Below, piece by piece: positions 1 to 47,086 of a stretch of DNA of 47,086 nucleotides. The notes under the pieces are model-generated. The model did no database searches. It was not told where the DNA came from and worked only from the letters and a program-made list of their open reading frames with translations. Made by a program: the position numbers and the translations under genes. The DNA is from a phage. Every line of letters starts with the position of its first letter. The stretch's first letter is position 1. The stretch is taken from the NCBI GenBank assembly GCA_020364185.1, contig GCA_020364185.1_4846.1. One strand, 5' to 3'.

Positions 1-94
1 AAAAAAAATTTTCGTCAAGGTATTGCGTTTACCAACACGTTGACGTATCTTTAAGTCACACCAGCGATATGCTGAGTTAAATCGAGAGGACACT

Positions 95-937
95 ATGAGC
101 TTATCAATGATTCAAAAACCAAAACCAGCAGCGCCAATCATAACATTGGTTGGTACTCCAGGTGTAGGCAAGACAACTCTTGCGGCGCTATTCCCAAACC
201 CAGTGTTTATTCAGGCTGAAGAGATCACTGGTGTTTTTGATGACTGGGATGATGAAAAGAAACCAGATTCATTTCCTGTACTGAAGCGAGCTGATGCTAA
301 ACGCAAAACAAGCACAAAGGATGATTTGCTGTCACAGCTACGCGCATTAATTACTGAGGAACATAATTACAAAACGCTTGTAATTGACTCAATCACAAGC
401 CTGCATTCAATGTTTGAGCATGAGGTTTGTGAAAATTACGGTGTTGACAACGTAGGTTCTGCGGCTGGTGGTTACAACAAAGGATATATTGTTGTTTCTG
501 AAATGCACGCTGAAATAATAAATGCATGTAAGTATCTTCGCAAAGAAAAAGGGATGAGCATTATTTATCTTGCACACGCAGGTGTTAAAAAGATGAAAAA
601 TCGCCCTGATGCTGATGAATACACTGTTTACACACTTGACATGCATGATGCTTCTGTTTCTGGCTATGTGAATCTTAGCGATGCTGTTATTTACATCAGG
701 AATGAGGAGTTCGTTAAAGGAACTGAGACTGATAAGAAAGGGCAGGTGACCAAGTTTGGAAAGGTTGTTCAGACTGGTCAGCGAGTTCTTATTACATCTG
801 GCGATGGTAGAGTTGGATATGTTAATGCAAAAAACAGATACAACCTTGAGCCTGAAATTCCTTTTGAAAAAGGTGAGAACCCACTTTTGAGTGAGATTAA
901 ATATTATGCATCTCTACGAGATAACCAAGCAGCTTAA
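95..937 (+). CDS. Sak4-like recombination ATPase (AAA_24 / RecA-like P-loop)
   Basis: 280-aa ORF with Walker A GTPGVGKTT near N-terminus and hydrophobic strand followed by D (Walker B-like LVIDSITS); ATG at 95 preceded by GAGAGGA RBS; first gene of a replication operon. Confidence 0.8.
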   Translation: MSLSMIQKPKPAAPIITLVGTPGVGKTTLAALFPNPVFIQAEEITGVFDDWDDEKKPDSFPVLKRADAKRKTSTKDDLLSQLRALITEEHNYKTLVIDSITSLHSMFEHEVCENYGVDNVGSAAGGYNKGYIVVSEMHAEIINACKYLRKEKGMSIIYLAHAGVKKMKNRPDADEYTVYTLDMHDASVSGYVNLSDAVIYIRNEEFVKGTETDKKGQVTKFGKVVQTGQRVLITSGDGRVGYVNAKNRYNLEPEIPFEKGENPLLSEIKYYASLRDNQAA

Positions 938-944
938 TGAACTG

Positions 945-1385
945 ATGGCGATGGAGGATATTCCACGGGAGCAGATTGAAGATACCATCAATCTTATTGA
1001 AGAGGAGTTTGAAGGAAAAGCTGAAATGGTCGCTGCTTACATTCGTGAGCTTGAAGCTGATGAAGCTGGACTTAAATCCGAGATTGACCGTCTTTCTGAG
1101 CGTAAGCGTGTTTTAGTTGCGAAGATTGATAACCTTAAAGATTATCTTCGTCAGAACATGATGGCGTCAGGAAAGACAAATATCAAAGGTAAGTTGTTCA
1201 GTATCACTCTTGGCAAAATGTCACCAGTTCTTGATGTGTTTGTCCCTGTTGAACAGCTTCCTGAGCAGTACCGCGTTGTGAAAGTGTCGGCAGATAACGC
1301 AGCAATTAAAAATGCGATAAAAGCCGGGATTGAAATTAAGGGTTGTGCCATCACCGACGGCAAACCAAAACTGATCATCAAATAA
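945..1385 (+). CDS. Gp157-family-like coiled-coil protein (Sak4-associated); start ambiguous (track start 891 overlaps upstream gene)
   Basis: ORF immediately after Sak4-like gene; charged coiled-coil N-terminal half (EEEFEGKAEMVAAYIRELEADEAGLKSEIDRLSERKR); ATG at 945 is first in-frame ATG after upstream stop at 935-937. Confidence 0.45.
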   Translation: MAMEDIPREQIEDTINLIEEEFEGKAEMVAAYIRELEADEAGLKSEIDRLSERKRVLVAKIDNLKDYLRQNMMASGKTNIKGKLFSITLGKMSPVLDVFVPVEQLPEQYRVVKVSADNAAIKNAIKAGIEIKGCAITDGKPKLIIK

Positions 1386-1402
1386 ATCGAGAGGACACAA
1401 AA

Positions 1403-1924
1403 ATGGGTTTCTGGAATCTTTCTGACGGTAAAGCTGTTGAATCTAAATCTGAATTTGAACTGGGTGGTGGTTTCGAAGTAATTCCTGATGGTAGTCGTGT
1501 TCTTGCTGCCGTTGAAGAATGTAAAGACGACCAGTGGGAAGGTGAGCGATTCTTCAATCTTAAGTGGCGAATCCTTGAGGGTGAGTATAAAAATCGCATC
1601 ATCTTTCAGAAGCTGAAAGTATTTAGCTCAAAAGAAAAGCAGCGCGACAATGCTATCACTATGCTTGCAGCAATTGACGCAAACGCCGGTGGCAAGCTGA
1701 TGGCTTCAGGTAAAGAGCCGACTGATTTTGCTATTGCCAGTGCGCTTGCAAATCGCCCAATGATTCTTCTTCTTCGCGTTTGGGAGTCTGAGGATAAGCA
1801 AAAAACTGGTAACTATGTGGCTGGTGTTTTCAGTCGTCAACAGACAAAAGCATCACCTACTCCTAAGCAATCAGCGCCATCTAACGAGCCTCCGATGGAT
1901 TTCGAAGAAGACGTTCCGTTTTGA
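1403..1924 (+). CDS. SSB-like protein with E. coli SSB-type acidic C-terminal tail (putative ssDNA-binding protein)
   Basis: ATG at 1403 preceded by AAATCGAGAGGACAC leader; C-terminus ...SAPSNEPPMDFEEDVPF closely resembles the E. coli SSB tail ...SNEPPMDFDDDIPF (recalled from memory); N-terminal body not obviously canonical. Confidence 0.55.
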   Translation: MGFWNLSDGKAVESKSEFELGGGFEVIPDGSRVLAAVEECKDDQWEGERFFNLKWRILEGEYKNRIIFQKLKVFSSKEKQRDNAITMLAAIDANAGGKLMASGKEPTDFAIASALANRPMILLLRVWESEDKQKTGNYVAGVFSRQQTKASPTPKQSAPSNEPPMDFEEDVPF

Positions 1925-1940
1925 TTTGGATTAGAATTAC

Positions 1941-1966
1941 GGGGCCATTCGTGGCCCTTTTTTATT
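1941..1966 (+). terminator. intrinsic terminator / attenuator between SSB-like gene and helicase
   Basis: GGGCCA-ttcg-TGGCCC perfect 6-bp stem followed by TTTTTTTAT. Confidence 0.55.
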
Positions 1967-1978
1967 CGAGAGGACACT

Positions 1979-3847
1979 ATGAAAGTACAGCTTAGAACAT
2001 ACCAACAAGAAGCTGTTGATTCTGTTATATGTCATATTCGTTCAAGCGTTTCATCGTGCATGATCATCTTGCCTACAGGGTCTGGGAAAAGCGTTGTTGT
2101 TGCATCAATCGCCGATTGGGTATTTAAAAATACTGGCAAGCGCGTTCTGTGCGTTGCCCCAACAAGCGAGTTAGTTGTACAAAACAGGCAGCGTTTTCTT
2201 TCTCTTACCGGCGAGCCAGCCAGCATGTTCAGTGCAAAGGCTGGCCCCAAAAACCTGCGTCACCCGGTAGTGTTTGGTTCACCAGTTACAATCAAGAACT
2301 CAATAGAGATGTTTGGTGATAAGTATGGTGCTGTCATTATTGATGAATGTGATGGAATAACGCCAACCATTAAATTCATTATTAATGAGATGAAGCGTCG
2401 CAATCCAAAACTGCGTGTTATTGGAATGACCGCTACGCCTTACCGCCTTGGAACTGGATACATCTACAAAGAGCATTACCTCGACGGTCCTACAGATGAA
2501 GAAACAGCCATAGACCCATATTACGACAAAGTCGTTTATGAGCTTGAAGCTAAATTTCTCATCGAAAACGGATACCTTACTCCGCCAGTAACAGAGCCTG
2601 TTTTTGACGAGTATGATACGTCTTGTCTTGAAAAGGATAAGTTGGGTCGGTACACGATAGCTTCAGTTGAAAAGGCGATGGTTGGAAAAGGAAGAAAAAC
2701 ATCACGTATTGTTGAAGATATTATCCGTCGCTCTGTTAATCGGCGAGGAACGATGATTTTTGCCAGCACCAAGAAACACGCTATGGAGATAATGGAGTCA
2801 CTTCCTCCCGGTTCTTATAGTTATGTTTTTGGTGATATGCCGACAACGGAACGCAATAAGGCAATATCAGACTTCAAGGCGCAAAAAGTTAAATACATCG
2901 TTAACCAAAATATCCTTACTGTAGGGGTTGATGTTCCTCATTGTGATCACATAGCAGTAATGAGAGCCACAGAATCACCAAGGCTCTATCAGCAAATAAT
3001 TGGCAGGGGGACGCGTCTTTATGAAGGAAAGGAAGATTTTCTTGTCAGCGATTACGCAGGCAACATTCAGCGCCACTTTTCTGCGACTGGGGACTTATTC
3101 ACTCCAGAAATAAAAGCAACAAGGAAAAAACCATCCGTGCCAATGGATGTCAAATGCCCTCTTTGTGGCTTTATTAATGAATTTGGCGTGCGCCCAAATC
3201 CTGAAAATCTTGAAGTTGACAATGAGGGGTACTGGCTTGATCTGGCTGGTGACAGGGTTATGATTGACATTTTTGATAAATCAGGTGAAAAAGTTGGAAG
3301 AAAGCCAATGCCAGCTCATTTTGGCAGGAGGTGTAAAAACTATGTTATGCAAGGACCATTAAGAGAAATGCACAGATGCACTTATAAATGGTCGGTAAAA
3401 GAATGTCCTGATTGTGGATTTGAAAATGATATAGCGGCAAGAAACTGCACATCATGCGGATCTGAAATCATTGACCCAAACCAAAAGCTAAAAGAAGAAG
3501 CTGACAGGCTTGATTCTTCTCCTTATGCAACCAAGCAATCAAGTGTAACCATGATGAATATCATGAAGCATTACGTTTCAAGCGGAGAAGACTTGGTGCA
3601 CGTGAAATTTGCTATTGAGCACAAGCCATTTTTTGTTAGCAAGTTCTACAATCCAAACTCTGAGAAGGAATGGATGAGGAAGGAGTGGGAAGAGTTTTGC
3701 AGTAAGTGCTTTGATGAATCTGACATGTCAATTGATGATGCAATAGCAAAAAGAGATGAGGCTGTCGCGCCATCAGTGATTATGTTCAGAAGAGATAAGG
3801 GTAGTAAATATTTCAACGTTAAAGGCATGTATTGGGGGGTATTATGA
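1979..3847 (+). CDS. SF2 DEAD/DEAH-box DNA helicase with C-terminal Zn-ribbon motifs
   Basis: 622-aa ORF; Walker A LPTGSGKS, DEAD-box-like IIDECD, SAT-like MTATP; two CxxC pairs (CPLCG, CPDCG / CTSCG) in C-terminal region. Confidence 0.8.
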   Translation: MKVQLRTYQQEAVDSVICHIRSSVSSCMIILPTGSGKSVVVASIADWVFKNTGKRVLCVAPTSELVVQNRQRFLSLTGEPASMFSAKAGPKNLRHPVVFGSPVTIKNSIEMFGDKYGAVIIDECDGITPTIKFIINEMKRRNPKLRVIGMTATPYRLGTGYIYKEHYLDGPTDEETAIDPYYDKVVYELEAKFLIENGYLTPPVTEPVFDEYDTSCLEKDKLGRYTIASVEKAMVGKGRKTSRIVEDIIRRSVNRRGTMIFASTKKHAMEIMESLPPGSYSYVFGDMPTTERNKAISDFKAQKVKYIVNQNILTVGVDVPHCDHIAVMRATESPRLYQQIIGRGTRLYEGKEDFLVSDYAGNIQRHFSATGDLFTPEIKATRKKPSVPMDVKCPLCGFINEFGVRPNPENLEVDNEGYWLDLAGDRVMIDIFDKSGEKVGRKPMPAHFGRRCKNYVMQGPLREMHRCTYKWSVKECPDCGFENDIAARNCTSCGSEIIDPNQKLKEEADRLDSSPYATKQSSVTMMNIMKHYVSSGEDLVHVKFAIEHKPFFVSKFYNPNSEKEWMRKEWEEFCSKCFDESDMSIDDAIAKRDEAVAPSVIMFRRDKGSKYFNVKGMYWGVL

Positions 3848-4299
3848 TTTTTCCAGAAGGCGTTAAGGTATATGGTGATTTAGATTACAGAAACAAAAAA
3901 TGCCCGTCAGAAGATGCTGAGCTGGAGACTTTTGTTAATCAGATAAGGAAGATATATCCTGACTTTGCAAGGGTTATGATTCATGTTCCAAATGAAGGCA
4001 AGCGCAAGGGATATGAAGTTGAAAATCTTAAGAAGAAGGGCGCGTTAAATTTCGGAGCATCAGACATTATCATTAACGGAAAGCAATCATTCGTTATGGA
4101 GATGAAGAGAATGGATCATACTTTATCAAAATGGCAGCCCGGTCAAATGGCATACCTAAAGGCGGCAAAAGAATTAGGTTCCTTCGCGTGTGTATGCCTT
4201 GGTTGGGAGGCTGCAATGATGGCATTTAACGACTGGAGAGCAATGAATTACCCAAACTATAAAAAACCATCAGAGCCATTGATATTTGATGGTTTTTAG
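3844..4299 (+). CDS. VRR-NUC domain nuclease (PD-(D/E)xK)
   Basis: ATG at 3844 overlaps helicase stop (ATGA); preceded by GGGGGG; motif GASDIIINGK...FVMEMKR fits D...E-x-K nuclease core; ends with TAG (amber) at 4297-4299. Confidence 0.7.
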   Translation: MIFPEGVKVYGDLDYRNKKCPSEDAELETFVNQIRKIYPDFARVMIHVPNEGKRKGYEVENLKKKGALNFGASDIIINGKQSFVMEMKRMDHTLSKWQPGQMAYLKAAKELGSFACVCLGWEAAMMAFNDWRAMNYPNYKKPSEPLIFDGF

Positions 4300-4419
4300 C
4301 AACAACGCCAGCAATCAGGCCAGCAACCGCAACGACAGCAGCAACAGCGATCAAAACAACAAAGCCCACAAATAGGCAATGAGCCTCCGGTTGGTTTTGA
4401 TGATTCAATACCCTTCTGA
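4300..4419 (+). other. in-frame 39-codon extension after amber stop encoding an SSB-type C-terminal tail (QQRQQSGQQPQRQQQQRSKQQSPQIGNEPPVGFDDSIPF*)
   Basis: direct translation of frame continuing from VRR-NUC TAG; no internal ATG; ends GNEPPVGFDDSIPF then TGA. Confidence 0.4.
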
Positions 4420-4430
4420 TGATAAAACTA

Positions 4431-4458
4431 ACCCCGCCGAAGCGGGGTTTTTGTTGTT
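4431..4458. terminator. bidirectional intrinsic terminator between convergent replication operon and tail module
   Basis: ACCCCGC-cgaa-GCGGGGT stem-loop followed by TTTTTGTTGTT on plus strand and a U-rich tract on minus strand. Confidence 0.65.
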
Positions 4459-4464
4459 ATAATA

Positions 4465-6609
4465 TTAATCAGCGTAAAACATCAAGAACATAATAAGCTC
4501 ATCATAGCGTATTCCGTACCTTACTCCAGCTGGTTTAACCGTTACAACTTCCTCTAACGTTTCTGGATTAATGCTTCTTTCAGAAGATTCTTCCCACTCG
4601 TCCTTGCACCAGAATGCGTAATCCTCTGGTTTAAGTCCATGCTTTGTTAGGATAGAACCAACGGTTTGCGCACCAACACCGAAGTGTGTCCGTGCAGACT
4701 CTTTTCCCTTAAGTTCTATAGCGTCAGTAAACTTATAGCGAATAATATTCTTGCGAATTTCATTGGCCGCTTCCCTTTCCGCACTCTCGTTTGTTGCCTG
4801 GGCTTTTACCTTCAGCGTTTCATCCGATGTGCTTATTGTGCCCGTGGCAGCATAGACAACAGACCATCTATTTGATGTATATCCTAATACGGTCGCATTG
4901 TCTGTATCAGGCATGAATCCATTGTATCCACTAATCTTAAGGTCGCCATTTGGGTTTCCTGATGATGTTTTACCATCATGGCTGGTCAGGGTTACTCCTT
5001 TTGTCCCGGTAGCGGTTGTTATCAAGATACCGGCGTGGGTAGCACCCAGAAGCTGAATTTCGCTATTATCGTTGCGTAAATCCTGCGCAGGTGCCTCTAG
5101 CACAGATGACGTGAATTTCCATTTCGTATCAGAAAAAAGTTCGACCGGTTGTACGCCATCCTTCTGATACATAATGGCTTTAACCCCGGAGTCCTTGCGT
5201 CTTACACCGATGGCATTTGGTTGCGACCCGGACCAGTTAGACGCGAAAGTAAACCCGTCAAATTCCACCAATGACTCATAAGGATTGCTGGTATCGTTAT
5301 TGATGGGTTCTGTAATAAAAATCCATCCCCAGTCGAAATAGTTATTATAAGTCCCTACGTTAGCATCTATCTGATACGCCCGGGTGCATACCCCCCCATA
5401 GTAACCGTAGAATCTCAGGTTCCCGGCAACTTGTGAGTCGGAGCTTACGGTTTTAACCACGCGCACACCACACGGCACATCTGCGGGACCCGTCGTTTTG
5501 GTTATATTCTCACAAGAGCCGCCAAACACCCGAAGTGAGTCCGTGCTTTCAATCCAGAACGCACAGTTTCCCGTTACGTGAACTGGGTTGTAAATAGTGA
5601 TTCTGGTATTGTTGTTGTCACCTGAAACACTCCGATTGAATCTAAACCCGCAGTCAACGTTTTCAAATACTGGATTTTTTATGGTGTGGTAATACGCGCC
5701 GCTGTTAGCCCCAGAAACTGTTGGTCCTGGTTGCAGTAACACCCCTACAGACACGTCTGTCGCTTTTGGGTTGTTAAGCTGACAAAACTGTTGCGATACA
5801 CGCGTAGTAGTTTGTGTAAGATCTTCTGGGCTTATTGCGTATGCCACTACCTCTGTGAAACCATCTGGATTTATTACCGCAGGGTTGGTTACGATACAGA
5901 AATCATGACTCATTCGTAGACATGTTATGCCAGAAGCTCCTGCTACGATTGTCGTACCAGTGAAATCAATATACCTTGTAGATGTAACATCCTGCGTATA
6001 CGAGCCATCGAACTTCATCACAAGACTTTGTGTTATGCGATATCTCGCACCTACTCTTCCTGTTAATTTACCAAACGGCACCCCTTCCAACCACGACAAT
6101 GCCGCCAGCATCGCGGAGGTATCATTAGTTACCCCGTCGCCAATGGCACCGAACTCTTCAAATGACTTTATTGTCGTAACTCGATGGGCAATCTGGTCAA
6201 TTGTTGCACCATGCTTTGTTAGATCAGTTCTAATAGACGCATCACCAACACTAACCCACGCTCCCAGACCAATGCCACCGGAAGTTTCAGGAGCTGAGCC
6301 AGATGGTACGGTTTTAGGAAACGCACCATCCCAACGGTAATATTCTCCGGTAGCTTCATAACGCAAAACCTGATTTGGTAGTGTCAGTGTCGCCCCATCT
6401 TCAAAGCTATCCATTGTTATGTAGCCATAATTACGGATAGCCTCTTCTGCGGTGTACTGAAAACCAGCAATTGTCCAGCGGCGTACACCGAATCGGTCGG
6501 TGTAGTAATGCGCGTCAGAGTTGACAACTTCGTCAATTTTCCCTGCATTAAATTTCAGGTCTCGCGGGTCTTCTGACGGAATTGGTTTATTGGTTGGTGT
6601 GGTAGACAT
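4465..6609 (-). CDS. tail fibre / tailspike with C-terminal intramolecular chaperone (peptidase S74-like) domain
   Basis: 714 aa from ATG at 6609 (AAGGAG RBS 9 nt upstream); Gly/Ser/Thr-rich beta-rich body; C-terminal region ...SNRWSVVYAATGTISTSDETLKVKAQ...IRYKFTDAIELKG... resembles autocleaving chaperone of endosialidase-type fibres. Confidence 0.7.
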   Translation of the reverse strand: MSTTPTNKPIPSEDPRDLKFNAGKIDEVVNSDAHYYTDRFGVRRWTIAGFQYTAEEAIRNYGYITMDSFEDGATLTLPNQVLRYEATGEYYRWDGAFPKTVPSGSAPETSGGIGLGAWVSVGDASIRTDLTKHGATIDQIAHRVTTIKSFEEFGAIGDGVTNDTSAMLAALSWLEGVPFGKLTGRVGARYRITQSLVMKFDGSYTQDVTSTRYIDFTGTTIVAGASGITCLRMSHDFCIVTNPAVINPDGFTEVVAYAISPEDLTQTTTRVSQQFCQLNNPKATDVSVGVLLQPGPTVSGANSGAYYHTIKNPVFENVDCGFRFNRSVSGDNNNTRITIYNPVHVTGNCAFWIESTDSLRVFGGSCENITKTTGPADVPCGVRVVKTVSSDSQVAGNLRFYGYYGGVCTRAYQIDANVGTYNNYFDWGWIFITEPINNDTSNPYESLVEFDGFTFASNWSGSQPNAIGVRRKDSGVKAIMYQKDGVQPVELFSDTKWKFTSSVLEAPAQDLRNDNSEIQLLGATHAGILITTATGTKGVTLTSHDGKTSSGNPNGDLKISGYNGFMPDTDNATVLGYTSNRWSVVYAATGTISTSDETLKVKAQATNESAEREAANEIRKNIIRYKFTDAIELKGKESARTHFGVGAQTVGSILTKHGLKPEDYAFWCKDEWEESSERSINPETLEEVVTVKPAGVRYGIRYDELIMFLMFYAD

Positions 6610-6648: not shown

Positions 6649-9977
<3,329 letters not shown>

Positions 9978-16620: not shown

Positions 16621-16697
16621 GGACGCGTAGCTTAATTGGTTAAAGCAACCGACTCATAATCGGCTGATTGAAGGTTCAAATCCGTCCGTGTCCACCA
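16621..16697 (+). tRNA. tRNA-Met (anticodon CAU; could be initiator/elongator Met or lysidine-modified Ile2)
   Basis: manual fold: 7-bp acceptor stem (one G-U), U8, D-arm GCTT/AAGC with GG in loop, anticodon loop CUCAUAA, T-loop TTCAAAT, discriminator A and encoded CCA; two stem mismatches. Confidence 0.6.
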
Positions 16698-17272: not shown

Positions 17273-17764
17273 ATGATTTCAGAGCGTGATTACATAGCAA
17301 TCGCGTCAAGAGTTAAATACGACCCGATTACCGGATTGTTCACCTGGGCTGTAAGTTGCGGGAAAATATCAAAAGGTGATATTGCAAACTATCACAACGA
17401 CGCAGGATACATAACCCTTGGGAAGAAAAGATTAAGGGCGCACCGAGTGGCTTGGTTTATCCATTATGGATATGTCCCTGAGCATGAAATTGATCACATA
17501 AACAATATTCGTGATGACAATAGAATTTCAAATCTGAGGGAGGCCAGTGACTGCGAGAACGCAAGGAACACAAAGATATCTAAATCAAACACGTCTGGAT
17601 ATAAAGGAGTTCATTTTTGCAAGTGCACTGGGAAATGGAGAGCCACGGTAAAGATGCATGGGAAAACCTATCATCTTGGTAGGTTTTCAGACAAAGAAGC
17701 AGCCCATAAAGCCTATTGCAAAAAAGTAGATGAACTGTTTTTGGAGTTCGCAAACCACGGCTAA
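17273..17764 (+). CDS. HNH homing endonuclease with AP2-like DNA-binding domain
   Basis: GGAGG RBS then ATG 17273; motifs RLRAHRVAWFIHYGYVPEHEIDHINNIRDDNRISNLREAS (HNH) and SGYKGVHFCKCTGKWRATVKMHGKTYHLGRFSDKEAAHKAY (AP2-like); opposite strand to surrounding structural genes. Confidence 0.75.
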   Translation: MISERDYIAIASRVKYDPITGLFTWAVSCGKISKGDIANYHNDAGYITLGKKRLRAHRVAWFIHYGYVPEHEIDHINNIRDDNRISNLREASDCENARNTKISKSNTSGYKGVHFCKCTGKWRATVKMHGKTYHLGRFSDKEAAHKAYCKKVDELFLEFANHG

Positions 17765-20413: not shown

Positions 20414-21223
20414 ATGAAAACACTAAGCAAAATCTATTCAGACAAAGAAACGCGCAACGGCATCGCTGTGAACAAAACCTATCTCGTGCCAGTTGAACAA
20501 ATCTATCTTGAGCCTGGATACAACATCCGTGAAGCAGATGAGCAGCACGTTGAATATTTCGCGCAGTGCTGGGAATCAGGTCAGCCATTGCCAGCGCTAA
20601 CAGTTATTCCTGATGAGAAAGGAATCCGCATTCTTGATGGTCAGCATCGTTATCTCGGTGCATTGCGTGCCATTGAGCGTGGAGCGCCAATCGTTCGCAT
20701 TGAGTGTAAGGACTTCACTGGCGATGAGGCTGACAAAATTGCTTTCATGGTGTCATCTAGCCAGGGTAAGCAGCTTGACCCGTTTGAACGTGCAAAGGCA
20801 TATACCAGACTGAAAGGCTTTGGCTGGACTAACGAAGAAATCGCCAAGAAGGTAGGCCGCTCAGTATCCGATGTGCAGATGCACCTGTCATTGGGTGATG
20901 TGCCAGCGGAAGTTAAAGCGCGAATCAATGCCGGGCAAATCAGTTATGCAAATGCCGTTGCGGTAACGCGTGAGCATGGCGATGATGCGGTTAAAGTTAT
21001 CGACGAGGCAGTGGAAGAAGCCAAAGCGCAAGGCAAAGATAAAGTCACGGCAAAAGTGCTTAAGTCGAAAAAGGTTAAGCCGGTTGACCGTCTTATTGAG
21101 TTACTCAAACTAGCAGACCATGTGATTCTTCCCGCTGGTCATGTAGTGGCAGAGGATGAGGAATTTATTCAGATTCCTGTTGCTGATATTCACGAGGTTA
21201 TGGCAATTCTGGAGAAGATGTGA
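20414..21223 (+). CDS. ParB-like nuclease domain protein with HTH
   Basis: 269 aa; ParB N-terminal domain signature IRILDGQHRYLGALRA and a central helix-turn-helix-like segment (TNEEIAKKVGRSVSDVQMHL). Confidence 0.7.
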   Translation: MKTLSKIYSDKETRNGIAVNKTYLVPVEQIYLEPGYNIREADEQHVEYFAQCWESGQPLPALTVIPDEKGIRILDGQHRYLGALRAIERGAPIVRIECKDFTGDEADKIAFMVSSSQGKQLDPFERAKAYTRLKGFGWTNEEIAKKVGRSVSDVQMHLSLGDVPAEVKARINAGQISYANAVAVTREHGDDAVKVIDEAVEEAKAQGKDKVTAKVLKSKKVKPVDRLIELLKLADHVILPAGHVVAEDEEFIQIPVADIHEVMAILEKM

Positions 21224-21426
21224 TGAATGAGCGTGATGACAAGTTAATTGCAGGATGGGGCGACCCACTACTGTCTAAGAAGGTTCACTATTTCCGCGAC
21301 GGGAAAATTATCAGTGAATGTGGTAAGTGGATGTTTGGCGGAGGAAGAGAAGATATATCAGCATGGAAGCCTGATGCAATATGCAAACAATGCCTAAGGA
21401 AATTTGAGAAGATGGAGAAGATTTGA
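21220..21426 (+). CDS. hypothetical protein (possible Cys-rich Zn-binding)
   Basis: 68 aa; ATGA overlap with ParB-like gene; Cys spacing ...ECGKW...CKQC. Confidence 0.4.
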   Translation: MMNERDDKLIAGWGDPLLSKKVHYFRDGKIISECGKWMFGGGREDISAWKPDAICKQCLRKFEKMEKI

Positions 21427-21599
21427 TGACGCCAGAACAATTCATCGAAAAACACCTCCGCGTAAAGCTGCCTGACATAGACCAGATGGCAATTGATGCG
21501 GCAATCCAGTATTACAAGCGCAATCAGAGCGCAAAGAAGGGTGGCATTTTTGAAGAATGCCTTAAGGTTGCAAAACAGCACATGATTAAGGTGAAGTGA
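21426..21599 (+). CDS. hypothetical protein (57 aa), translationally coupled
   Basis: hand-translated MTPEQFIEKHLRVKLPDIDQMAIDAAIQYYKRNQSAKKGGIFEECLKVAKQHMIKVK; start codon shares a base with the upstream stop (TGATG at 21424-21428) and its stop TGATG-overlaps the downstream ATG (21597-21601). Confidence 0.3.
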   Translation: MTPEQFIEKHLRVKLPDIDQMAIDAAIQYYKRNQSAKKGGIFEECLKVAKQHMIKVK

Positions 21600-27570: not shown

Positions 27571-28059
27571 TCATACTCTTGCTTCTTGCGTTTGGCTTTT
27601 CCCATGCTGACCTCTTGCGCTGCGAAGGAGTGAATTAAACAGTTTGCTCACGTTTACTTCCTGCTCCTGCCATGAGTAACGCCATAGCTTCTTGTGGTGG
27701 TCATAGCTTCGCGTCGCATCGCCGTTATGAAACATGATGCGGATGCGGCTTTTCACGATGCGGTAATCCAATCCAGTGGCTGCGCTAATTTCTTTCACCT
27801 CTGCGCCAGCGTTATCAATCAGGTGACACTTGATTGCATCATCAATTCCTGCAGAATCATCGGAGATGAAATACTTGTACTGCCACTTGCCGCCGCGAAT
27901 CACCGACTTCTCTCGGCGAATGAAGCCAAGAGCAAGCATCTCATGCAAACGATGCGTTGTGGTGCTTGAATGCTTACCGCCGCAATGCTTTTCAATATAT
28001 GCACGCGTTGCTCCGGGATGGTTGAGAATCACGCGCATGATTTGCGATTTATAGTCCAT
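27571..28059 (-). CDS. putative DNA-binding protein; start uncertain
   Basis: ORF downstream of HNH gene; basic helical N-terminal region; start at ATG 28059 chosen to avoid long overlap with HNH gene. Confidence 0.35.
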   Translation of the reverse strand: MDYKSQIMRVILNHPGATRAYIEKHCGGKHSSTTTHRLHEMLALGFIRREKSVIRGGKWQYKYFISDDSAGIDDAIKCHLIDNAGAEVKEISAATGLDYRIVKSRIRIMFHNGDATRSYDHHKKLWRYSWQEQEVNVSKLFNSLLRSARGQHGKSQTQEARV

Positions 28060-28570
28060 AATCGCGCTCCGCTGCTGCCTGATTGAAGTCGTCGGCGGTG
28101 TAGAGGTGTCCGTGATTCTGAAATTCACCTTGTATTTTGTTTCTGTATTCTATCAATGCATTAATTGCTTGTTCTTTTGTTTTAAAGTAACCAAGCGTCT
28201 TTCTCATACAGTCTGCACGCCATTTCATTCGCTTTTGTACAAACCTTACTCCTTTTGCTCCTGATTTATTTGAGGATGGCTGTGGCTTATTCCATTCATT
28301 TTGACTTCTTGTTGCCTTTCTCAGATTGCAAATTCTGTTGTCATCCTTTACACCGTTAATGTGATCTATTTCATGTTCAGGCCATTCACCGTAAACATAA
28401 AACCATGCCAATCTATGAGCCAATCTCTTTTTTCCTAGCAGCCTTATGTGTATATATCCACTGGATGTTTTTGTTCCGCATGCATTACCGTTCTTTCTCC
28501 TAAACTCACCTGTGTCCGTATTATAGTGAATTAACTGTAATACAGTATCGTGATTAAGATCGCATTTCAT
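28049..28570 (-). CDS. HNH homing endonuclease with AP2-like DNA-binding domain (paralogue of 17273-17764)
   Basis: KKRLAHRLAWFYVYGEWPEHEIDHINGVKDDNRICNLRKATRSQNEWN (HNH) and SGAKGVRFVQKRMKWRADCMRKTLGYFKTKEQA (AP2-like). Confidence 0.75.
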   Translation of the reverse strand: MKCDLNHDTVLQLIHYNTDTGEFRRKNGNACGTKTSSGYIHIRLLGKKRLAHRLAWFYVYGEWPEHEIDHINGVKDDNRICNLRKATRSQNEWNKPQPSSNKSGAKGVRFVQKRMKWRADCMRKTLGYFKTKEQAINALIEYRNKIQGEFQNHGHLYTADDFNQAAAERDYGL

Positions 28571-28806
28571 TAGTATTCACCCTCAAAATCACTATCTTTA
28601 TAAGTAAACCCCCCTCTTGTATTCCATGACTTCACCGCCGAATCTGCGTGAAGCCACTCATCAGTACCGCACCCGCACTGCGAACAAGCAACGTAATAGC
28701 CATGAATATTTTTGTCATTGTAAGCATCGTTGCAGCCACAGAATGGGCACTCCAGCAATCCTTCATCATTCATCATCGGCATATGTGGCGCTGTCATTTT
28801 AACCAT
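28570..28806 (-). CDS. Lar-family restriction alleviation-like protein
   Basis: 78 aa; LECPFCGC...HGYYVACSQCGCGTDEW...AVKSWNTRGG resembles the Zn-ribbon pattern recalled for Lar-type restriction alleviation proteins. Confidence 0.55.
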   Translation of the reverse strand: MVKMTAPHMPMMNDEGLLECPFCGCNDAYNDKNIHGYYVACSQCGCGTDEWLHADSAVKSWNTRGGFTYKDSDFEGEY

Positions 28807-36599: not shown

Positions 36600-36607
36600 C
36601 GATGGAT

Positions 36608-37483
36608 ATGAATCAAGTTATTAGCTTTTCAGGCGGCAGGACTTCAGCGTTTATGACACTTGAGGTGCTAAAGATACACCCAGAAGCAGAGGTTATCTTT
36701 ATGGACACTGGAGCAGAGCACCCAAAAACGTATGAGTTTATTCGCAACTTCGCAAAGCACTTCAATGTCGCCGTGACATGTCTTCGTGTGGTGCCAAATC
36801 ATGAGATGCGCAAAGCAAGTACGTATGAGCAGTTAACCGTCGATGAGATTGGCCCGGACCTTGAGCCATGGCGTAGAATGTTGCGCAAGTACGGTCACCC
36901 ATATGTTGGTGGGGCGTTCTGCACTGACCGCATGAAAACAGTCCCATTCACAAAATACTGCAATGAAAAATACGGGAAGAGCAATTATGAGAGATGGCTT
37001 GGTATCAGGGTTGATGAACAAAATCGGTTAAAGAATAGAGGTGACGGTTTTCATTACCTTGCAGACATCAGTGACTTTGAAAAGCAGGATATCCTTGACT
37101 GGTGGTCAATGCAAGAGTTCGACCTTGGCATTAAGGAGCATCTTGGCAATTGCGTTTTCTGCATCAAGAAGAGTCTGCAGAAGGTTGCGCTTGCTGCAAA
37201 GGATGAGCCTGAACTTGCCGCTGAATTTTGGCAGATGATTCAGGCTGAAGATAAAAAATCAGACAAGATAATGTATCGTTCAAACAGAAGCCTTGGCGAC
37301 GTTATAGCTTTATTTAACGATGCAAGCAGGGATGAACTGGCATCACGGATGACGTCAATGCGCCAGTACGATACTGGCTCATGCAGTGAGAGCTGCGAGG
37401 CGTTTGGTGGGACCGAGAATTCAATGAAGCATTACTTAAATGACGCTGGTGATGATTATGAAAATCGTGGCGATGACTCATGA
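36608..37483 (+). CDS. PAPS reductase-like PP-loop ATPase family protein
   Basis: N-terminal ISFSGGRTSA PP-loop; start at ATG 36608 (8 nt after AAGGAG) preferred over 36602. Confidence 0.7.
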   Translation: MNQVISFSGGRTSAFMTLEVLKIHPEAEVIFMDTGAEHPKTYEFIRNFAKHFNVAVTCLRVVPNHEMRKASTYEQLTVDEIGPDLEPWRRMLRKYGHPYVGGAFCTDRMKTVPFTKYCNEKYGKSNYERWLGIRVDEQNRLKNRGDGFHYLADISDFEKQDILDWWSMQEFDLGIKEHLGNCVFCIKKSLQKVALAAKDEPELAAEFWQMIQAEDKKSDKIMYRSNRSLGDVIALFNDASRDELASRMTSMRQYDTGSCSESCEAFGGTENSMKHYLNDAGDDYENRGDDS

Positions 37484-43046: not shown

Positions 43047-43262
43047 ATGTACAGGTTTGGTAGCGCAATGGCTGAGGTGTATGAGTTTGTTAGCGGGATG
43101 TCGATTGGAGAGGTGCGATTTTTTGTGGTAGATGATTTCCGTGCCAATAACAGTATTGAAAAATTCAGGGCGAGCCTGTGCTGTGTTGCGAAAGATAATT
43201 CGTGGCTTTTTGTAACCAGAAAGATGGAAGAAGGCGAAGTGTCTGTTCGGAGGATTAAATGA
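43047..43262 (+). CDS. hypothetical protein
   Basis: 71 aa from ATG 43047 (GGAGG RBS); stop overlaps primase start (ATGA). Confidence 0.4.
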   Translation: MYRFGSAMAEVYEFVSGMSIGEVRFFVVDDFRANNSIEKFRASLCCVAKDNSWLFVTRKMEEGEVSVRRIK

Positions 43263-45592
43263 TGATTGGTTATGAAGATTACCGCAAATGTGGCTTCCCT
43301 ATTATTGGAATCCATGCAATGGATATCGACCGCAATTGCACATGCGGTGATCCAGAATGCAATGCTGCCGGTAAGCATCCGGTTATGAGTAACTGGCAGC
43401 TTGGAGTTATATGGGCTGATGACCAGATTGAAAATATGGCTGAATATGGTCAATTGCAGTCATTCGGTGTCCTTGTGAATGGTTATCTGGTAGTTGATAT
43501 TGATCCACGCAACGGAGGTAATGATGGATATGAATCACTTTGTGATGCCTTAGACGTAGAGCTTGCTGACGAAGCTGGCTTTACTGTTAAGACTGGTGGT
43601 GGTGGTCGCCACATCTATTACAAACTTCCTGAAGGAATAAAGCTGCGCTCTCATGACAGAAGGTTTAAGGGTATTGACTTTAAATCATCTGGTTTTGTTG
43701 TTGGCTGCGGCTCATTCCATAAGTCAGGTAACTTTTATGAAGCTGAGCATGGCTCTCCTTCAGAGATAACTGAATGCCCTTCTGAACTTATTGAGCTTTT
43801 GTTGCGTCCTGAGAGAACGGAAGACGAGGTTTTCACGCTTGATAGTAAAAATTACAGCATTGCCGAAATGGAGGATATGCTCAAATACATCAAAGATGGT
43901 GATGAGTATGACCCATGGCTTCATGTGGGCATGGCTATCCACGAAGCTACAGAAGGCAATGGTTTTGAACTTTGGGATAGGTGGTCATCGCAGTTCAGCA
44001 AGTACAGAGCTGAAGAAATGGACGCAAAATGGCATTCCTTTGGAAAGGACGGTGTTAACGAAAAGATAACCGAAGCAACGCTGGTTTATCTCGCGCAAGA
44101 GGGAGGGTGGGTAAGGCAAGTAACTTTTGAGGCTACTCCAGAGGAAATTGAGAAACTTGAGTCTTTCGAACGAGAGATGGCAATGGGTGTTGGTGAATGC
44201 CCTGTAGAGTACAAAAGTGTTGATGTCCGTTATCCGCCTGGATTTGTTGGTCGCCTTACGGCGTGGATTAATAAGAACTGTGCAGAGAAGCGAGAGAATA
44301 TTGCAGCACTTGCTGCATTGCACGCTGCATCCATGATTTGTGGGGCGTCATCTGATATTTATCTTACAAACAGGAAAGCCTTACCAAACCTGTTTGCTGT
44401 TGGTATAGCTGGTTCAGGTTCAGGTAAGGGTGATGTCCTTGCTGCGCTACAAAAGATAATTGATTGCTCAGGATTGAGTAAGACTGTCGCCGGTAAGATA
44501 CGTTCAGAGCGTGCGATATATGAAGGTCTTTGCGCTAACCAGATGTTTAATATCATCATGGATGAGATTGGGATAAAACTTGGGAGTGTTGTTGGTCAGA
44601 AAGTAAGCGAGTACAACATGGCAACCGCTGGTGCGATCATGGAGGCTTACACGTCAGAAGTTCTTTATTGTGACCAGCGGGTTACTGAGGATTTCATTAA
44701 GTCTTTCGAAAAGAGAAAGGCTATGCTGTTGATGGCTATTGAGGAAAATGAGATACAGGCAGACCCCGTTGACATTAAGTGTCAGTTTGATGATGTGATA
44801 AACAGAATTGACGGAGCTATAAGGAATCCATTTTTTTCAATCTTTGGTGTGTCTACTGATGATCAGTTTAAGCGACTTATTACTGAAGAAAACATTAAGT
44901 CAGGTCTTATGGGTCGTGCAATGATTATGCAGGAGTTACAGGAGATTGCTGACGAAAACGAAAACGTCAACTACTGTGATCTACCTATGGATATGCAACT
45001 GACCATAAAAACAATAATAAATGGAGGAACAGCTGGGCACAAAAACTGGACAGACTCAATAATCAGTCAAAAAGAAAGACGGATTATAAAAGCTACGCCT
45101 GAAGTTTCTCAGCTCGCTAAGGAGTTCTTCTCATGGATTAAAACCGTTGCAAGAAAGCATGTAGAAAATGGTACTGGTTATCACCCATTGATAAACAGAT
45201 GCGCCGTGAAGGTGGCAAAGATTGCTGGCATTCTCGCGTGCGATACTGGCGTCATAACCATGGAGCACTTGAGGTATGCGGTAGCATTAACAATTAAATC
45301 AACAAGCGATCTGATGATGCGTGCTGACAGTATCGCCGGAGCGAAGTCTAAAGCTATGGAAGAACGAATTGAAGGTATTTTCTCCATGGTTAAAGAATAT
45401 GTGAAGCGTGGAATGACCAAAACAGCAATGGTTAGAGGGGTAGCAAAAGAAGGTGGGTATAAACGTGCTGATGTCGAGAGGTGCGTAGAGAAGTTGTTAT
45501 CAGATGGTATTATTTGCATTGATGAAAATGCAAAAAGAACATCTCACAACGTAATAATTTACAAATTAACAAATGATGAGGTTGAGATATGA
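43259..45592 (+). CDS. primase-polymerase (AEP-type) replication protein with central P-loop NTPase region
   Basis: 777 aa; N-terminal Prim-Pol-like motifs (VVDIDPRNGG, TVKTGGGGRHIYYKLP, GIDFKSSGFVVGCGSFHKSGNFYE), PriCT-like WLHVGMAIH...LWDRWS, Walker A GIAGSGSGKG. Confidence 0.65.
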   Translation: MMIGYEDYRKCGFPIIGIHAMDIDRNCTCGDPECNAAGKHPVMSNWQLGVIWADDQIENMAEYGQLQSFGVLVNGYLVVDIDPRNGGNDGYESLCDALDVELADEAGFTVKTGGGGRHIYYKLPEGIKLRSHDRRFKGIDFKSSGFVVGCGSFHKSGNFYEAEHGSPSEITECPSELIELLLRPERTEDEVFTLDSKNYSIAEMEDMLKYIKDGDEYDPWLHVGMAIHEATEGNGFELWDRWSSQFSKYRAEEMDAKWHSFGKDGVNEKITEATLVYLAQEGGWVRQVTFEATPEEIEKLESFEREMAMGVGECPVEYKSVDVRYPPGFVGRLTAWINKNCAEKRENIAALAALHAASMICGASSDIYLTNRKALPNLFAVGIAGSGSGKGDVLAALQKIIDCSGLSKTVAGKIRSERAIYEGLCANQMFNIIMDEIGIKLGSVVGQKVSEYNMATAGAIMEAYTSEVLYCDQRVTEDFIKSFEKRKAMLLMAIEENEIQADPVDIKCQFDDVINRIDGAIRNPFFSIFGVSTDDQFKRLITEENIKSGLMGRAMIMQELQEIADENENVNYCDLPMDMQLTIKTIINGGTAGHKNWTDSIISQKERRIIKATPEVSQLAKEFFSWIKTVARKHVENGTGYHPLINRCAVKVAKIAGILACDTGVITMEHLRYAVALTIKSTSDLMMRADSIAGAKSKAMEERIEGIFSMVKEYVKRGMTKTAMVRGVAKEGGYKRADVERCVEKLLSDGIICIDENAKRTSHNVIIYKLTNDEVEI

Positions 45593-46217: not shown

Positions 46218-46472
46218 ATGGATGTGAAGGATAAAGTTTTATATGTGATGAGAAAGAGAAAATCTATTGAGGAGGAACTTGGGATTTGTGGCAAGTTCTC
46301 CGTGGCTACGTGGAGTTTGCGTCTATCTATGGTGAATGAATTTCCTGATGATGAATGGACAGCAGCAAAGTTACGGAAGGTTCTGATTTCTCTTTGTAAT
46401 GATGGGGTTGTATCAAATGATTTAAATAATAGTCGTATTGGTAATTCAGTTTGGGTTCTGGAGGAAAACTGA
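46218..46472 (+). CDS. hypothetical protein (possible winged-helix)
   Basis: 84-aa ORF with GGTAAGG RBS. Confidence 0.4.
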   Translation: MDVKDKVLYVMRKRKSIEEELGICGKFSVATWSLRLSMVNEFPDDEWTAAKLRKVLISLCNDGVVSNDLNNSRIGNSVWVLEEN

Positions 46473-46777
46473 TGGCTAACTTGCAACTTGCCGTAAAAGG
46501 TGAATACTTCGATGCCATGATTCGCGGGGAGAAAACGGAAGAGTATCGCCTTTTCAATGACTACTGGAAGAAACGCCTTATTAACTTTAAAGATAGCGGA
46601 CAGATTGGAAGGAAGTACGAAAGGTTAATTATCACAAAAGGATATCCAAAGAAGGACGATAAATCCAGGCGTATTGATATACCATACGATGGATGGACGG
46701 TTAAAACCATCACACACCCTCACTTCGGCCCTAACCCAGTGGAAGTGTTCGCAATAAAAGTTAACATCAAAGCATAA
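46472..46777 (+). CDS. ASCH/PUA-like domain protein (tentative)
   Basis: 101 aa from ATG 46472 (GGAGGA RBS); pattern L.VKGEYFDAMIRGEKTEEYR....W.KRL resembles ASCH-like small beta-barrel proteins. Confidence 0.4.
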   Translation: MANLQLAVKGEYFDAMIRGEKTEEYRLFNDYWKKRLINFKDSGQIGRKYERLIITKGYPKKDDKSRRIDIPYDGWTVKTITHPHFGPNPVEVFAIKVNIKA

Positions 46778-46782
46778 CAAAA

Positions 46783-46810
46783 AGCCCGCAAACGCGGGCT
46801 TTATTATTTA
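46783..46810. terminator. bidirectional intrinsic terminator
   Basis: AGCCCGC-aaac-GCGGGCT followed by TTATTATTT. Confidence 0.6.
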
Positions 46811-47076
46811 ACAATCCATTTTGTGACAGCTGGCCTTAAATCTTCCTTTCTGAAAACTCCACCAGTAAGCGCCTCGGCATCAATTGCTGCTGTAGCGCTA
46901 ATTCTGCCTCTTGACACCCACTGATTAACAGCCTGTTTTGACACACCAAGAAACCTTGCCAGTTGTGATTGCCCTCCAACATAATCAATCAGCTCTGACA
47001 GCTTCGTCTGTTCCATTTCTCTTATCTGTTCTGCGATGCTTTTCATGTGTTTACCTCTGCTATCTGTATGCAGCAA
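46804..47076 (-). CDS. Cro/YdaS-family helix-turn-helix DNA-binding protein
   Basis: 90 aa; LIDYVGGQSQLARFLGVSKQAVNQWVSRGRIS is a classic HTH with downstream ...GVFRKEDLRP as recalled for YdaS/Cro-like proteins. Confidence 0.55.
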   Translation of the reverse strand: MLHTDSRGKHMKSIAEQIREMEQTKLSELIDYVGGQSQLARFLGVSKQAVNQWVSRGRISATAAIDAEALTGGVFRKEDLRPAVTKWIVK

Positions 47077-47086
47077 TAATGAACTC

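Follow-up and report, generated by a model that had tools for sequence, protein, structure and literature searches.

A conserved 12-nucleotide leader precedes the start codons of recombination and replication genes in the early operon of an Sf11-like siphophage

Why should three genes of a single phage operon start behind the same leader, when only four of its bases can be read by the ribosomal RNA? This question is raised by the DNA stretch GCA_020364185.1_4846.1 (47,086 nt; hereafter the window, meaning the whole stretch analysed), which is a complete, circularly permuted Sf11/Sa179lw-like siphophage genome whose positions 1-4385 are 94.8% identical to Shigella phage Sf11 (Cedarrivervirus). 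The window starts in the divergent promoter region between a Cro/YdaS-like gene on the minus strand and a rightward early operon of five genes, which encode Sak4, a Sipho_Gp157 protein, a DUF669 single-stranded DNA-binding protein (SSB), an SF2 helicase and a nuclease-like protein. A previous reading of the locus without database searches (the sequence-only reading) had noticed one and the same leader 1-4 nt before the ATG of a Sak4-like, an SSB-like and a helicase gene, and an exact 12-mer, TCGAGAGGACAC, is indeed found at all three positions. The identities that it had proposed for the three genes were confirmed by Pfam and PHROG matches (AAA_24/Sak4, DUF669 SSB-like and SF2, respectively; Table 1), but the genes are not consecutive as it had stated, because the Gp157 gene (906-1385) is located between Sak4 and SSB. 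The analysis presented below indicates that the motif is a real, strongly conserved and lineage-specific start-associated leader. We give a probability of about 0.5 to the reading that it constitutes an operon-specific extended translation-initiation signal, i.e. a 'start-associated sequence', the flanking bases of which would most probably be read by a factor.

The 12-mer is present exactly three times in the window, always on the plus strand (copies 1, 2 and 3 at sites 1, 2 and 3; Table 1), and 100 dinucleotide-preserving shuffles of the sequence yielded no exact match. The 15-mer AAATCGAGAGGACAC is exact at positions 79-93 and 1384-1398, site 3 reading TATTCGAGAGGACAC, and the sub-words AGAGGAC, GAGGACA and GAGGACAC are confined to these three sites on either strand. 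In agreement with these counts, an independent repeat finder run on positions 1-4600 ranked the motif family first, as 22 nt in register. The sequence-only reading had considered that a motif frequent in non-leader contexts would speak against a specific function; no other copies were detected in the window, in Sf11 or in Klebsiella phage VLCpiS13c, and the same three genomes contain no further start-associated copies with up to one mismatch from TCGAGAGGA. Among all 80 gene leaders of Sf11, these three share the longest strings (16, 13 and 12 nt, versus typical values of 4-5 nt). A scan of IMG/VR for the motif followed by ATG returned mostly single chance matches and is, hence, uninformative on other phages, two to three copies being found in relatives only. 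The GAGG within the motif is the sole Shine-Dalgarno (SD) sequence available to each of the three genes, which have the only intergenic translation starts of the operon; the Gp157 and nuclease genes begin inside the preceding gene, and both are devoid of the motif. Directly upstream of each copy there is an AU-rich tract (TTAAA, AAATAAA and TTTTTTAT).

The conservation of the motif was analyzed in a set of 36 related loci from GenBank phages, IMG/VR and metagenomes, in which some genomes are present twice. These loci fall into six lineages that are ~76-80% identical in Sak4 DNA and 76-90% in Sak4 protein, and comparisons among lineages A, B and C show no more than 40-45% identity at the four-fold degenerate sites of Sak4, a value near saturation. 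The motif was present at sites 1 and 2 in all 36 loci (consensus WCGAGAGGAMWY), and its core CGAGAGGA was unchanged in 92 of the 93 motif instances, all of them located on the coding strand within a few nucleotides upstream of a start codon. The spacing between motif and ATG is site-specific and has been kept, with 1 nt at sites 1 and 3 and 3-4 nt at site 2. The variants observed were TAGAGAGGACAC and ACGAGAGGACAT at site 1, and ACGAGAGGACAT, TCGAGAGGAATT and TCGAGAGGAAAT at site 2, and the ACA is lost in some functional copies (GGAATT, GGAAAT). The bases just 5' of copy 1 vary among the relatives (TTAAA, GTGAT, GTTAT, GGTAA and CATAA), and lineage F (L163) has a wholly different 5' untranslated region, yet it retains ACGAGAGGACATT-ATG. 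As a control, lineages A and B were compared at the remaining intergenic leaders of their orthologous genes, which match at only 4-9 of 16 nt (9 for the major capsid protein, 9 for the portal and 8 for the primase), whereas the Sak4 and SSB leaders match at 14-15 of 16 nt. The non-SD flanks of the motif are, therefore, under strong purifying selection, and the proposal of the sequence-only reading that conservation extends beyond the SD core stands, the flanks being kept across six lineages without pairing to 16S rRNA. Moreover, synonymous variation affects only one of seven codons within Sak4 codons 1-10, compared with about 75% elsewhere, and thus the conserved island spans from approximately -13 to +30, which is similar in size to a ribosome footprint. 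Both the site-specific spacing and the suppression of synonymous changes in these codons fit a ribosome-footprint-sized RNA element. A further repeat, AAGCTGTTGAWTCT (1431-1444 and 2010-2023), is located exactly 44 nt after copies 2 and 3, but it was judged a coincidence because it is coding (KAVES and EAVDS) and is not conserved in the SSB gene of lineage B.

How the flanking bases are read was addressed by searching for RNA partners and RNA folds. Pairing to the anti-SD is limited to GAGG, with -5.8 kcal/mol compared with -18.5 kcal/mol for a full SD, and the best duplex with E. coli 16S rRNA was weaker than that of 27 out of 30 shuffled motifs. An extended pairing with 16S rRNA was thus rejected, the 4-bp GAGG alone being paired. 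An antisense partner in the phage was also rejected, since the best non-self duplex predicted by RNAduplex on both strands (-15.3 kcal/mol) was no better than those of shuffles. The three leaders have no common structure, and a shared RNA fold was discarded as the unifying feature; the predictions leave all three largely open, with almost no folding at sites 1 and 2 (z = -0.17 and -0.03, not significant), and a possible SD-sequestering pairing with the F-W-N codons was found at site 2 only. The search of positions 1-2200 against Rfam gave nothing at E<=1 and three matches up to E=5 that fall far short of their gathering scores; in the window as a whole, a gathering score was reached by a tRNA at 16621-16694 alone.

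The predicted lack of structure at sites 1 and 2 also favours an explanation acting only in cis, according to which a well-performing, unstructured and purine-rich ribosome-binding site (RBS) was copied between sites, e.g. by short-homology recombination, and then frozen by selection on expression without any dedicated factor. In agreement with it, the motif holds an SD at a workable spacing, no factor was found either in the antisense search or in a Pfam scan of 47 open reading frames (ORFs), and suppression of synonymous changes at the 5' end is common in highly expressed genes. However, an optimum of this kind would be expected to vary with the coding sequence that follows, and this sequence is different in each of the three genes; with only 4 bp, the SD has not been maximised either. 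In addition, all other leaders drift freely between lineages, and although neither CGA nor ACA contributes any pairing to rRNA, CGAGAGGA is unchanged in all but one instance. We consider this explanation unlikely, albeit credible enough to be kept in mind.

A second possibility, already raised by the sequence-only reading, is that the motif is an RNA processing signal, so that an endoribonuclease cutting at or beside it would free stable cistrons or inactivate early messages. T4 RegB inactivates early messages at GGAG, and MazF could cut at ACA; the AU-rich tracts immediately upstream of every copy and the ACA placed 2-3 nt before the ATG at sites 1 and 3 would agree with a processing site. 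Nevertheless, the motif fits no known RNase consensus, some functional copies have lost the ACA, as mentioned above, and no motif-linked nuclease candidate was found, the ASCH protein encoded next to the operon not being co-distributed with the motif. Nothing in the sequence points to a known RNase signal, and RNA processing seems most improbable as the function of the element.

The shared translational operator suggested by the sequence-only reading is the best fit to a motif that contains the sole SD, keeps a fixed spacing and shows selected non-SD flanks, although the factor that should bind such an operator was not found. We propose that the GAGG core would act as the SD of the three cistrons with intergenic starts, i.e. 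those of Sak4, the DUF669 SSB and the gene that follows the internal terminator, and that the flanks (CGA upstream, A-M-A-Y downstream) would act at the mRNA level. The common initiation signal would allow the recombinase and its cognate SSB to be translated in a fixed ratio, and the identical leader probably coordinates the translation of Sak4, SSB and helicase. Most probably the flanks would be contacted by a sequence-specific factor that tunes or represses initiation. This factor might be encoded in the operon itself, as is the SSB, for which T4 gp32 and the f1 gene V protein offer parallels, or it might be a conserved enterobacterial host factor. Whatever goes beyond a selected, RBS-linked element is our interpretation of these data, from which we infer an element that works on RNA and a factor that acts on it in trans.

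A coordinated translation of this pair of genes has a precedent. Proteins with a DUF669 domain belong to the SSBs as remote members and form cognate pairs with Sak4 (PMC4889955, PMC5928155), the DUF669 SSB stimulates annealing by Sak4 (PMC5928155), and the sak4 and DUF669 ssb genes of HK620 are linked by a stop/start overlap (PMC5928155), i.e. they are overlap-coupled. The window contains the same partner proteins, Sak4 and a DUF669 SSB with an acidic C-terminal tail (...DFEEDVPF), in what we propose to be linked translation, but, in contrast to HK620, the two genes are separated by a Gp157 gene, and what would link them is their identical leader rather than an overlap.

Cis elements that overlap an RBS and through which one protein represses several messages, or its own message, are found in the T4 RegA regulon, in the autoregulation of T4 gp32 and in the action of f1 gene V on gene II/X mRNA, the translational repressor being an SSB in T4 and f1. 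As in these translational operators, the motif overlaps the RBS and precedes an SSB gene and its partner genes, and by this analogy the SSB appears as the most attractive candidate repressor. More specifically, SSB that is not bound to single-stranded DNA might read the CGAGAGGA leaders and jointly repress Sak4, itself and the gene in the helicase slot, which would extend a gp32-like feedback to a small regulon; we put this forward as a doubtful, though specific, proposal. The known operators also differ from the motif, since that of gp32 is an unstructured AU-rich tract next to a pseudoknot and not a defined 12-mer, and RegA sites are loosely conserved and centred on the AUG. Unlike the T4 RegA system, no RegA homologue was found here in the Pfam scan of the 47 ORFs, and repression is proposed by analogy. 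A conserved host factor would equally explain the invariance of the motif across phages of Escherichia, Shigella, Salmonella and Klebsiella.

The distribution of the motif outside the six lineages informs about its age. In relatives with a Sak4 identity of 70% or lower (L148, L149, L150, L151, L166 and L167), and in Enterobacter phage ST22, Sak4 is located upstream of SSB and the motif is absent. The contigs that reach far enough (L150, L166 and ST22) harbor the helicase downstream as well, and in L148, L150 and ST22 the SSB gene is closely followed by a terminator. The leaders of Sak4 and SSB in the motif-less relatives are unlike each other and unlike the motif, and no convincing repeated leader of their own was found in L148, L150, L166, ST22, H103 or Vibrio phage 1223. 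Since the gene order is kept in motif-less relatives, it predates the motif, and therefore the motif is not a relic or scar of module assembly; it is a derived feature that was installed at pre-existing gene starts. From the last lineage with the motif to the first one without it, the identity of the SSB decreases from 74% to 42% and that of Sak4 only from 76% to 70%, and this comparison of sequences gives a hint that the motif co-occurs with one SSB type.

If a protein reads the flanks, it might be expected among the products of the phage or of its host. None of the 47 ORFs contained a RegA, CsrA, Hfq, KH, S1 or Com-like domain in the Pfam scan, a negative that is limited by the many scanned ORFs that match no Pfam family. 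The Cro/YdaS-like regulator was judged unlikely as the reader, because lineages A and B share 69% identity in this protein and have dissimilar repeats in its promoter region, while their motif has stayed the same. Regarding CsrA, Hfq, MazF and GcvB-type recognition, what we take to be their target sequences have in common with the motif only A-GGA, ACA or a CA-rich tail, and none of them explains CGA. Several observations weigh against an initiation signal read by a factor. The Pfam scan revealed no RNA-binding regulator that could be the trans-acting reader among the 47 ORFs, and the ASCH 'RNA-binding' protein was rejected for this role because it is absent from VLCpiS13c, which has all three copies. 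It is also conceivable that an RBS becomes frozen by nothing other than very strong selection for a given level of expression. Site 3 is dispensable, since 15 of the 36 loci lack copy 3 and their helicase genes have another RBS, so that the helicase does not need the motif. Finally, the co-occurrence of the motif with one SSB type rests on a single evolutionary transition.

Site 3 differs from the other two sites in that the gene content varies there, and never at sites 1 and 2. Copy 3 is present in 21 of the 36 loci, almost always as one block with the terminator GGGCCATTCGTGGCCC; in VLCpiS13b (L008) it follows an endonuclease VII gene and this terminator is missing. Lineages A, B and E have the terminator hairpin of the window (1941-1964) in common. 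In the relatives, insertions are frequent in the gap that separates SSB from the helicase gene (1925-1978 in the window), which is a hot spot for them (L005 2924-3175; L006 2924-3356; L008 3223-3780; L161 about 5877). The slot is empty in some cases, and in others it is occupied by endonuclease VII, by a Cys-rich ORF of 125 aa, by further ORFs or by an ORF of 72 aa, which then has the motif as its own leader; the helicase itself has two alternative 5' ends at this point (MKVQL... and MKYTL...). Among the relatives, copy 3 precedes at least five different downstream ORF starts.

These features raise the question of whether the motif serves as a recombination linker, i.e. a short conserved piece of DNA that delimits cassettes at gene borders and favours the exchange of the modules on either side; it would then be comparable to the linker sequences proposed for lambdoid phages or to the PeSL cassettes of T4-type phages. 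Site 3 is indeed at the left edge of the variable slot with its two helicase variants, the terminator and the motif stay fixed in several genomes while the downstream ORF changes, and L145, L140 and L153 show TCTAAAGGAA in place of the motif after the same terminator, one junction falling at the motif. However, sites 1 and 2 show no gene turnover in any lineage, the Sak4-SSB arrangement is older than the motif, and 12 nt is very short for homologous exchange. Unlike PeSL-like cassettes, moreover, the exchanged genes are not flanked by motif copies on both sides; the inserted ORFs have the motif on the left at most, and the downstream helicase then uses GAGGGnTTTGATTT-ATG. Neither the fixed spacing to the ATG nor the co-orientation of the copies would be needed in a linker. 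Taken together, these data make a linker function improbable, and the recombination-derived module junction suggested by the sequence-only reading holds in part, for recombination beside copy 3 at site 3, but not as the origin of the motif, because the gene order predates it. The terminator is also of interest in its own right, since its location right after the SSB gene and abutting the next start codon is kept in the distant phages ST22, H103 and Vibrio phage 1223 and in L148 and L150 (window 1941-1978; L010 about 7740-7782; L011 about 6300-6337; L012 about 6550-6587), which suggests that attenuation at this point, after SSB and ahead of the replication genes, has been conserved.

The early promoter bears on whether the motif might act on DNA instead of RNA. 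The proposed rightward promoter (23-51) scored below the thresholds of a simple promoter scan and was recognised by alignment instead, its hexamers and spacing being kept in nine relatives with a variable spacer, and transcription from it would be expected to start near position 58. Site 1 would thus lie about 24-35 nt downstream of the transcript start. This location, the asymmetric and intergenic nature of the sites, their co-orientation with transcription and the presence of a helix-turn-helix regulator gene next door would be compatible with a DNA-level operator or roadblock similar to the stoperators, at which a phage or host protein bound to asymmetric 12-bp sites attenuates elongation. 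About 24-30 stoperators are found per genome in L5 and cluster A mycobacteriophages; they have the same sequence as the operator at the promoter, serve as binding sites for the phage repressor and show no link to start codons (PMC3203893). They resemble the motif in being asymmetric sites of 12-13 bp in short intergenic regions that are oriented with transcription, but here there are only three sites, all tied to start codons at fixed spacing. Furthermore, the promoter region (47047-47086 plus 1-60) contains no copy of the motif, its repeats being CGTCAA/TTGACG-like and lineage-variable; the promoter repeats and the Cro-like protein differ between lineages A and B while the motif is invariant; and the conserved island reaches into the first 10 codons, which fits an element of the size of a ribosome footprint. 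A roadblock on DNA is, accordingly, highly improbable.

Between this promoter and copy 1 there is a small hairpin at 61-76, whose stem is kept in the relatives while its loop is lineage-specific (GATAT, AACAAC, AAACAC, GAAAT, GAGAT or AAGAC); in L146 (about 3468-3483) the stem is a perfect 5-bp CCAGC/GCTGG. The hairpin is missing from lineage F (L163), although the motif is present there, and it may be an mRNA-stabilising 5' stem-loop.

The closest known counterpart of the extended initiation signal proposed here is the start-associated sequence (SAS) of cluster K mycobacteriophages, a 13-bp asymmetric repeat located 3-7 bp before the ATGs of non-structural genes (Pope et al. 2011, PMC3203893). 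It contains an SD core with conserved flanks that are unable to pair with 16S rRNA, and a role in translation was suspected (PMC3203893), but its function was still without a test in 2025 (PMC12699233). Both elements are short (12 versus 13 bp), asymmetric and present in one orientation, and they precede by a few nucleotides the ATGs of non-structural genes. Both contain an SD core within conserved flanks that lack pairing to 16S rRNA, are conserved across diverged subgroups, sometimes before different genes, and are rare elsewhere, as observed here in three complete genomes. In contrast, the sequences differ (GGGATAGGAGCCC in cluster K and TCGAGAGGACAC here), as do the phylum of the host and the phage lineage; the SAS has 11-19 copies over the right genome arm, compared with two to three copies in one operon; and there are no ESAS-like 17-bp inverted repeats beside the motif here. 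The motif is, therefore, an analogue and not a homologue of the SAS.

In mycobacteriophages, the first repeats placed before start codons and containing bases that are not read by the 16S rRNA were described in 2011, and they still await an explanation. The present case is smaller and cleaner, with two to three copies in one operon, and it is found in phages of E. coli, Shigella and Klebsiella, hosts in which reporters, toeprinting and phage engineering are routine. If a protein proves to read the extra bases, they would reveal a new translational control circuit for phage recombination genes, and the operon would become a tractable model of start-associated sequences; if no protein does so, the motif would show how tightly selection can freeze an RBS. 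Should the SSB turn out to act on these leaders as an operator-binding protein, this would be the first functional explanation of SAS-type elements. The motif also has a practical use, since it points to the true start codons where some deposited annotations have placed the start of a gene wrongly. The deposited starts of the Sf11 Sak4 and helicase genes (4392 and 6221 in the record; 3107 and 4936 in L001) look mis-called, the ATGs that follow the motif at 4380 and 6263 being better starts that match the conserved RBS, and the deposited start of the helicase gene of Klebsiella phage YX3973 (L004 3059) likewise looks mis-called.

The features of the operon and of its immediate neighbourhood are listed in Table 1.

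Table 1. Features at and around the motif-bearing early operon of the window.
Feature	Position	Strand	Evidence and remarks
Putative early rightward promoter	23-51	+	-35 TTGCGT at 23-28, 17-nt spacer, -10 TATCTT at 46-51
Small hairpin near the leader 5' end	61-76	+	Stem CAGC/GCTG (62-65 with 71-74), loop GATAT
Motif copy 1, TCGAGAGGACAC	82-93	+	Ends 1 nt before the Sak4 ATG (95)
Sak4-like (AAA_24) single-strand annealing protein gene	95-937	+	Pfam PF13479, E=1.9e-27; PHROG 124
Sipho_Gp157 / 'Mu Gam-like' gene	906-1385	+	PF05565, E=4.7e-38; PHROG 253; starts within the Sak4 3' end
Motif copy 2	1387-1398	+	1 nt after the Gp157 stop (1383-1385); ends 4 nt before the SSB ATG (1403)
DUF669 SSB-like gene	1403-1924	+	PF05037, E=1.7e-5; PHROG 9002, E=1.8e-68
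Intrinsic terminator, GGGGCCATTCGTGGCCC plus T tract	1941-1964	+	Terminator scan; fold z = -2.06; abuts motif copy 3
Motif copy 3	1966-1977	+	Ends 1 nt before the helicase ATG (1979)
SF2 helicase gene (ResIII/Helicase_C)	1979-3847	+	PF04851, E=1.2e-20; PF00271; PHROG 16
Nuclease-like gene	3844-4299	+	PHROG 824; no Pfam match; start overlaps the helicase stop (ATGA)
Bidirectional terminator closing the operon	4430-4449	both	8-bp stem with 6 GC pairs
ASCH protein gene	46472-46777		Neighbour of the operon
Cro/YdaS-like helix-turn-helix regulator gene	46804-47046	-	PF15943, PF14549; divergently transcribed

The nuclease-like gene that ends the operon is annotated in relatives as VRR-NUC or 'type III restriction endonuclease'. 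In the above-mentioned phage YX3973 (L004 2978-5884) the helicase gene, which is annotated as 'terminase large subunit', is approximately 1 kb longer than that of the window, and the extra sequence may be an intein or an inserted domain. With respect to the Sak4 operon, the primase gene of the Klebsiella lineage (L154 21138-23456) has the reverse orientation of that in the window (43259-45592), being located beside the regulator gene on the minus strand, a rearrangement that leaves the motif-bearing operon intact.

A second start-proximal repeat, GGAGAAGATNTGATG, was found in the ParB-RusA operon at 21211-21225 and 21414-21428, with 0.03 occurrences expected by chance, where it occupies two stop/start junctions, one after the other, between small ORFs. 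Unlike the motif of the early operon, it is situated within coding sequence and is not conserved in VLCpiS13c. Elsewhere in the window there are two genes for HNH_3 plus AP2-domain endonucleases (17273-17764 and 28049-28570), a gene for a Lar-like restriction-alleviation protein (28570-28806) and one for a protein with a PAPS-reductase domain (36602-37483).

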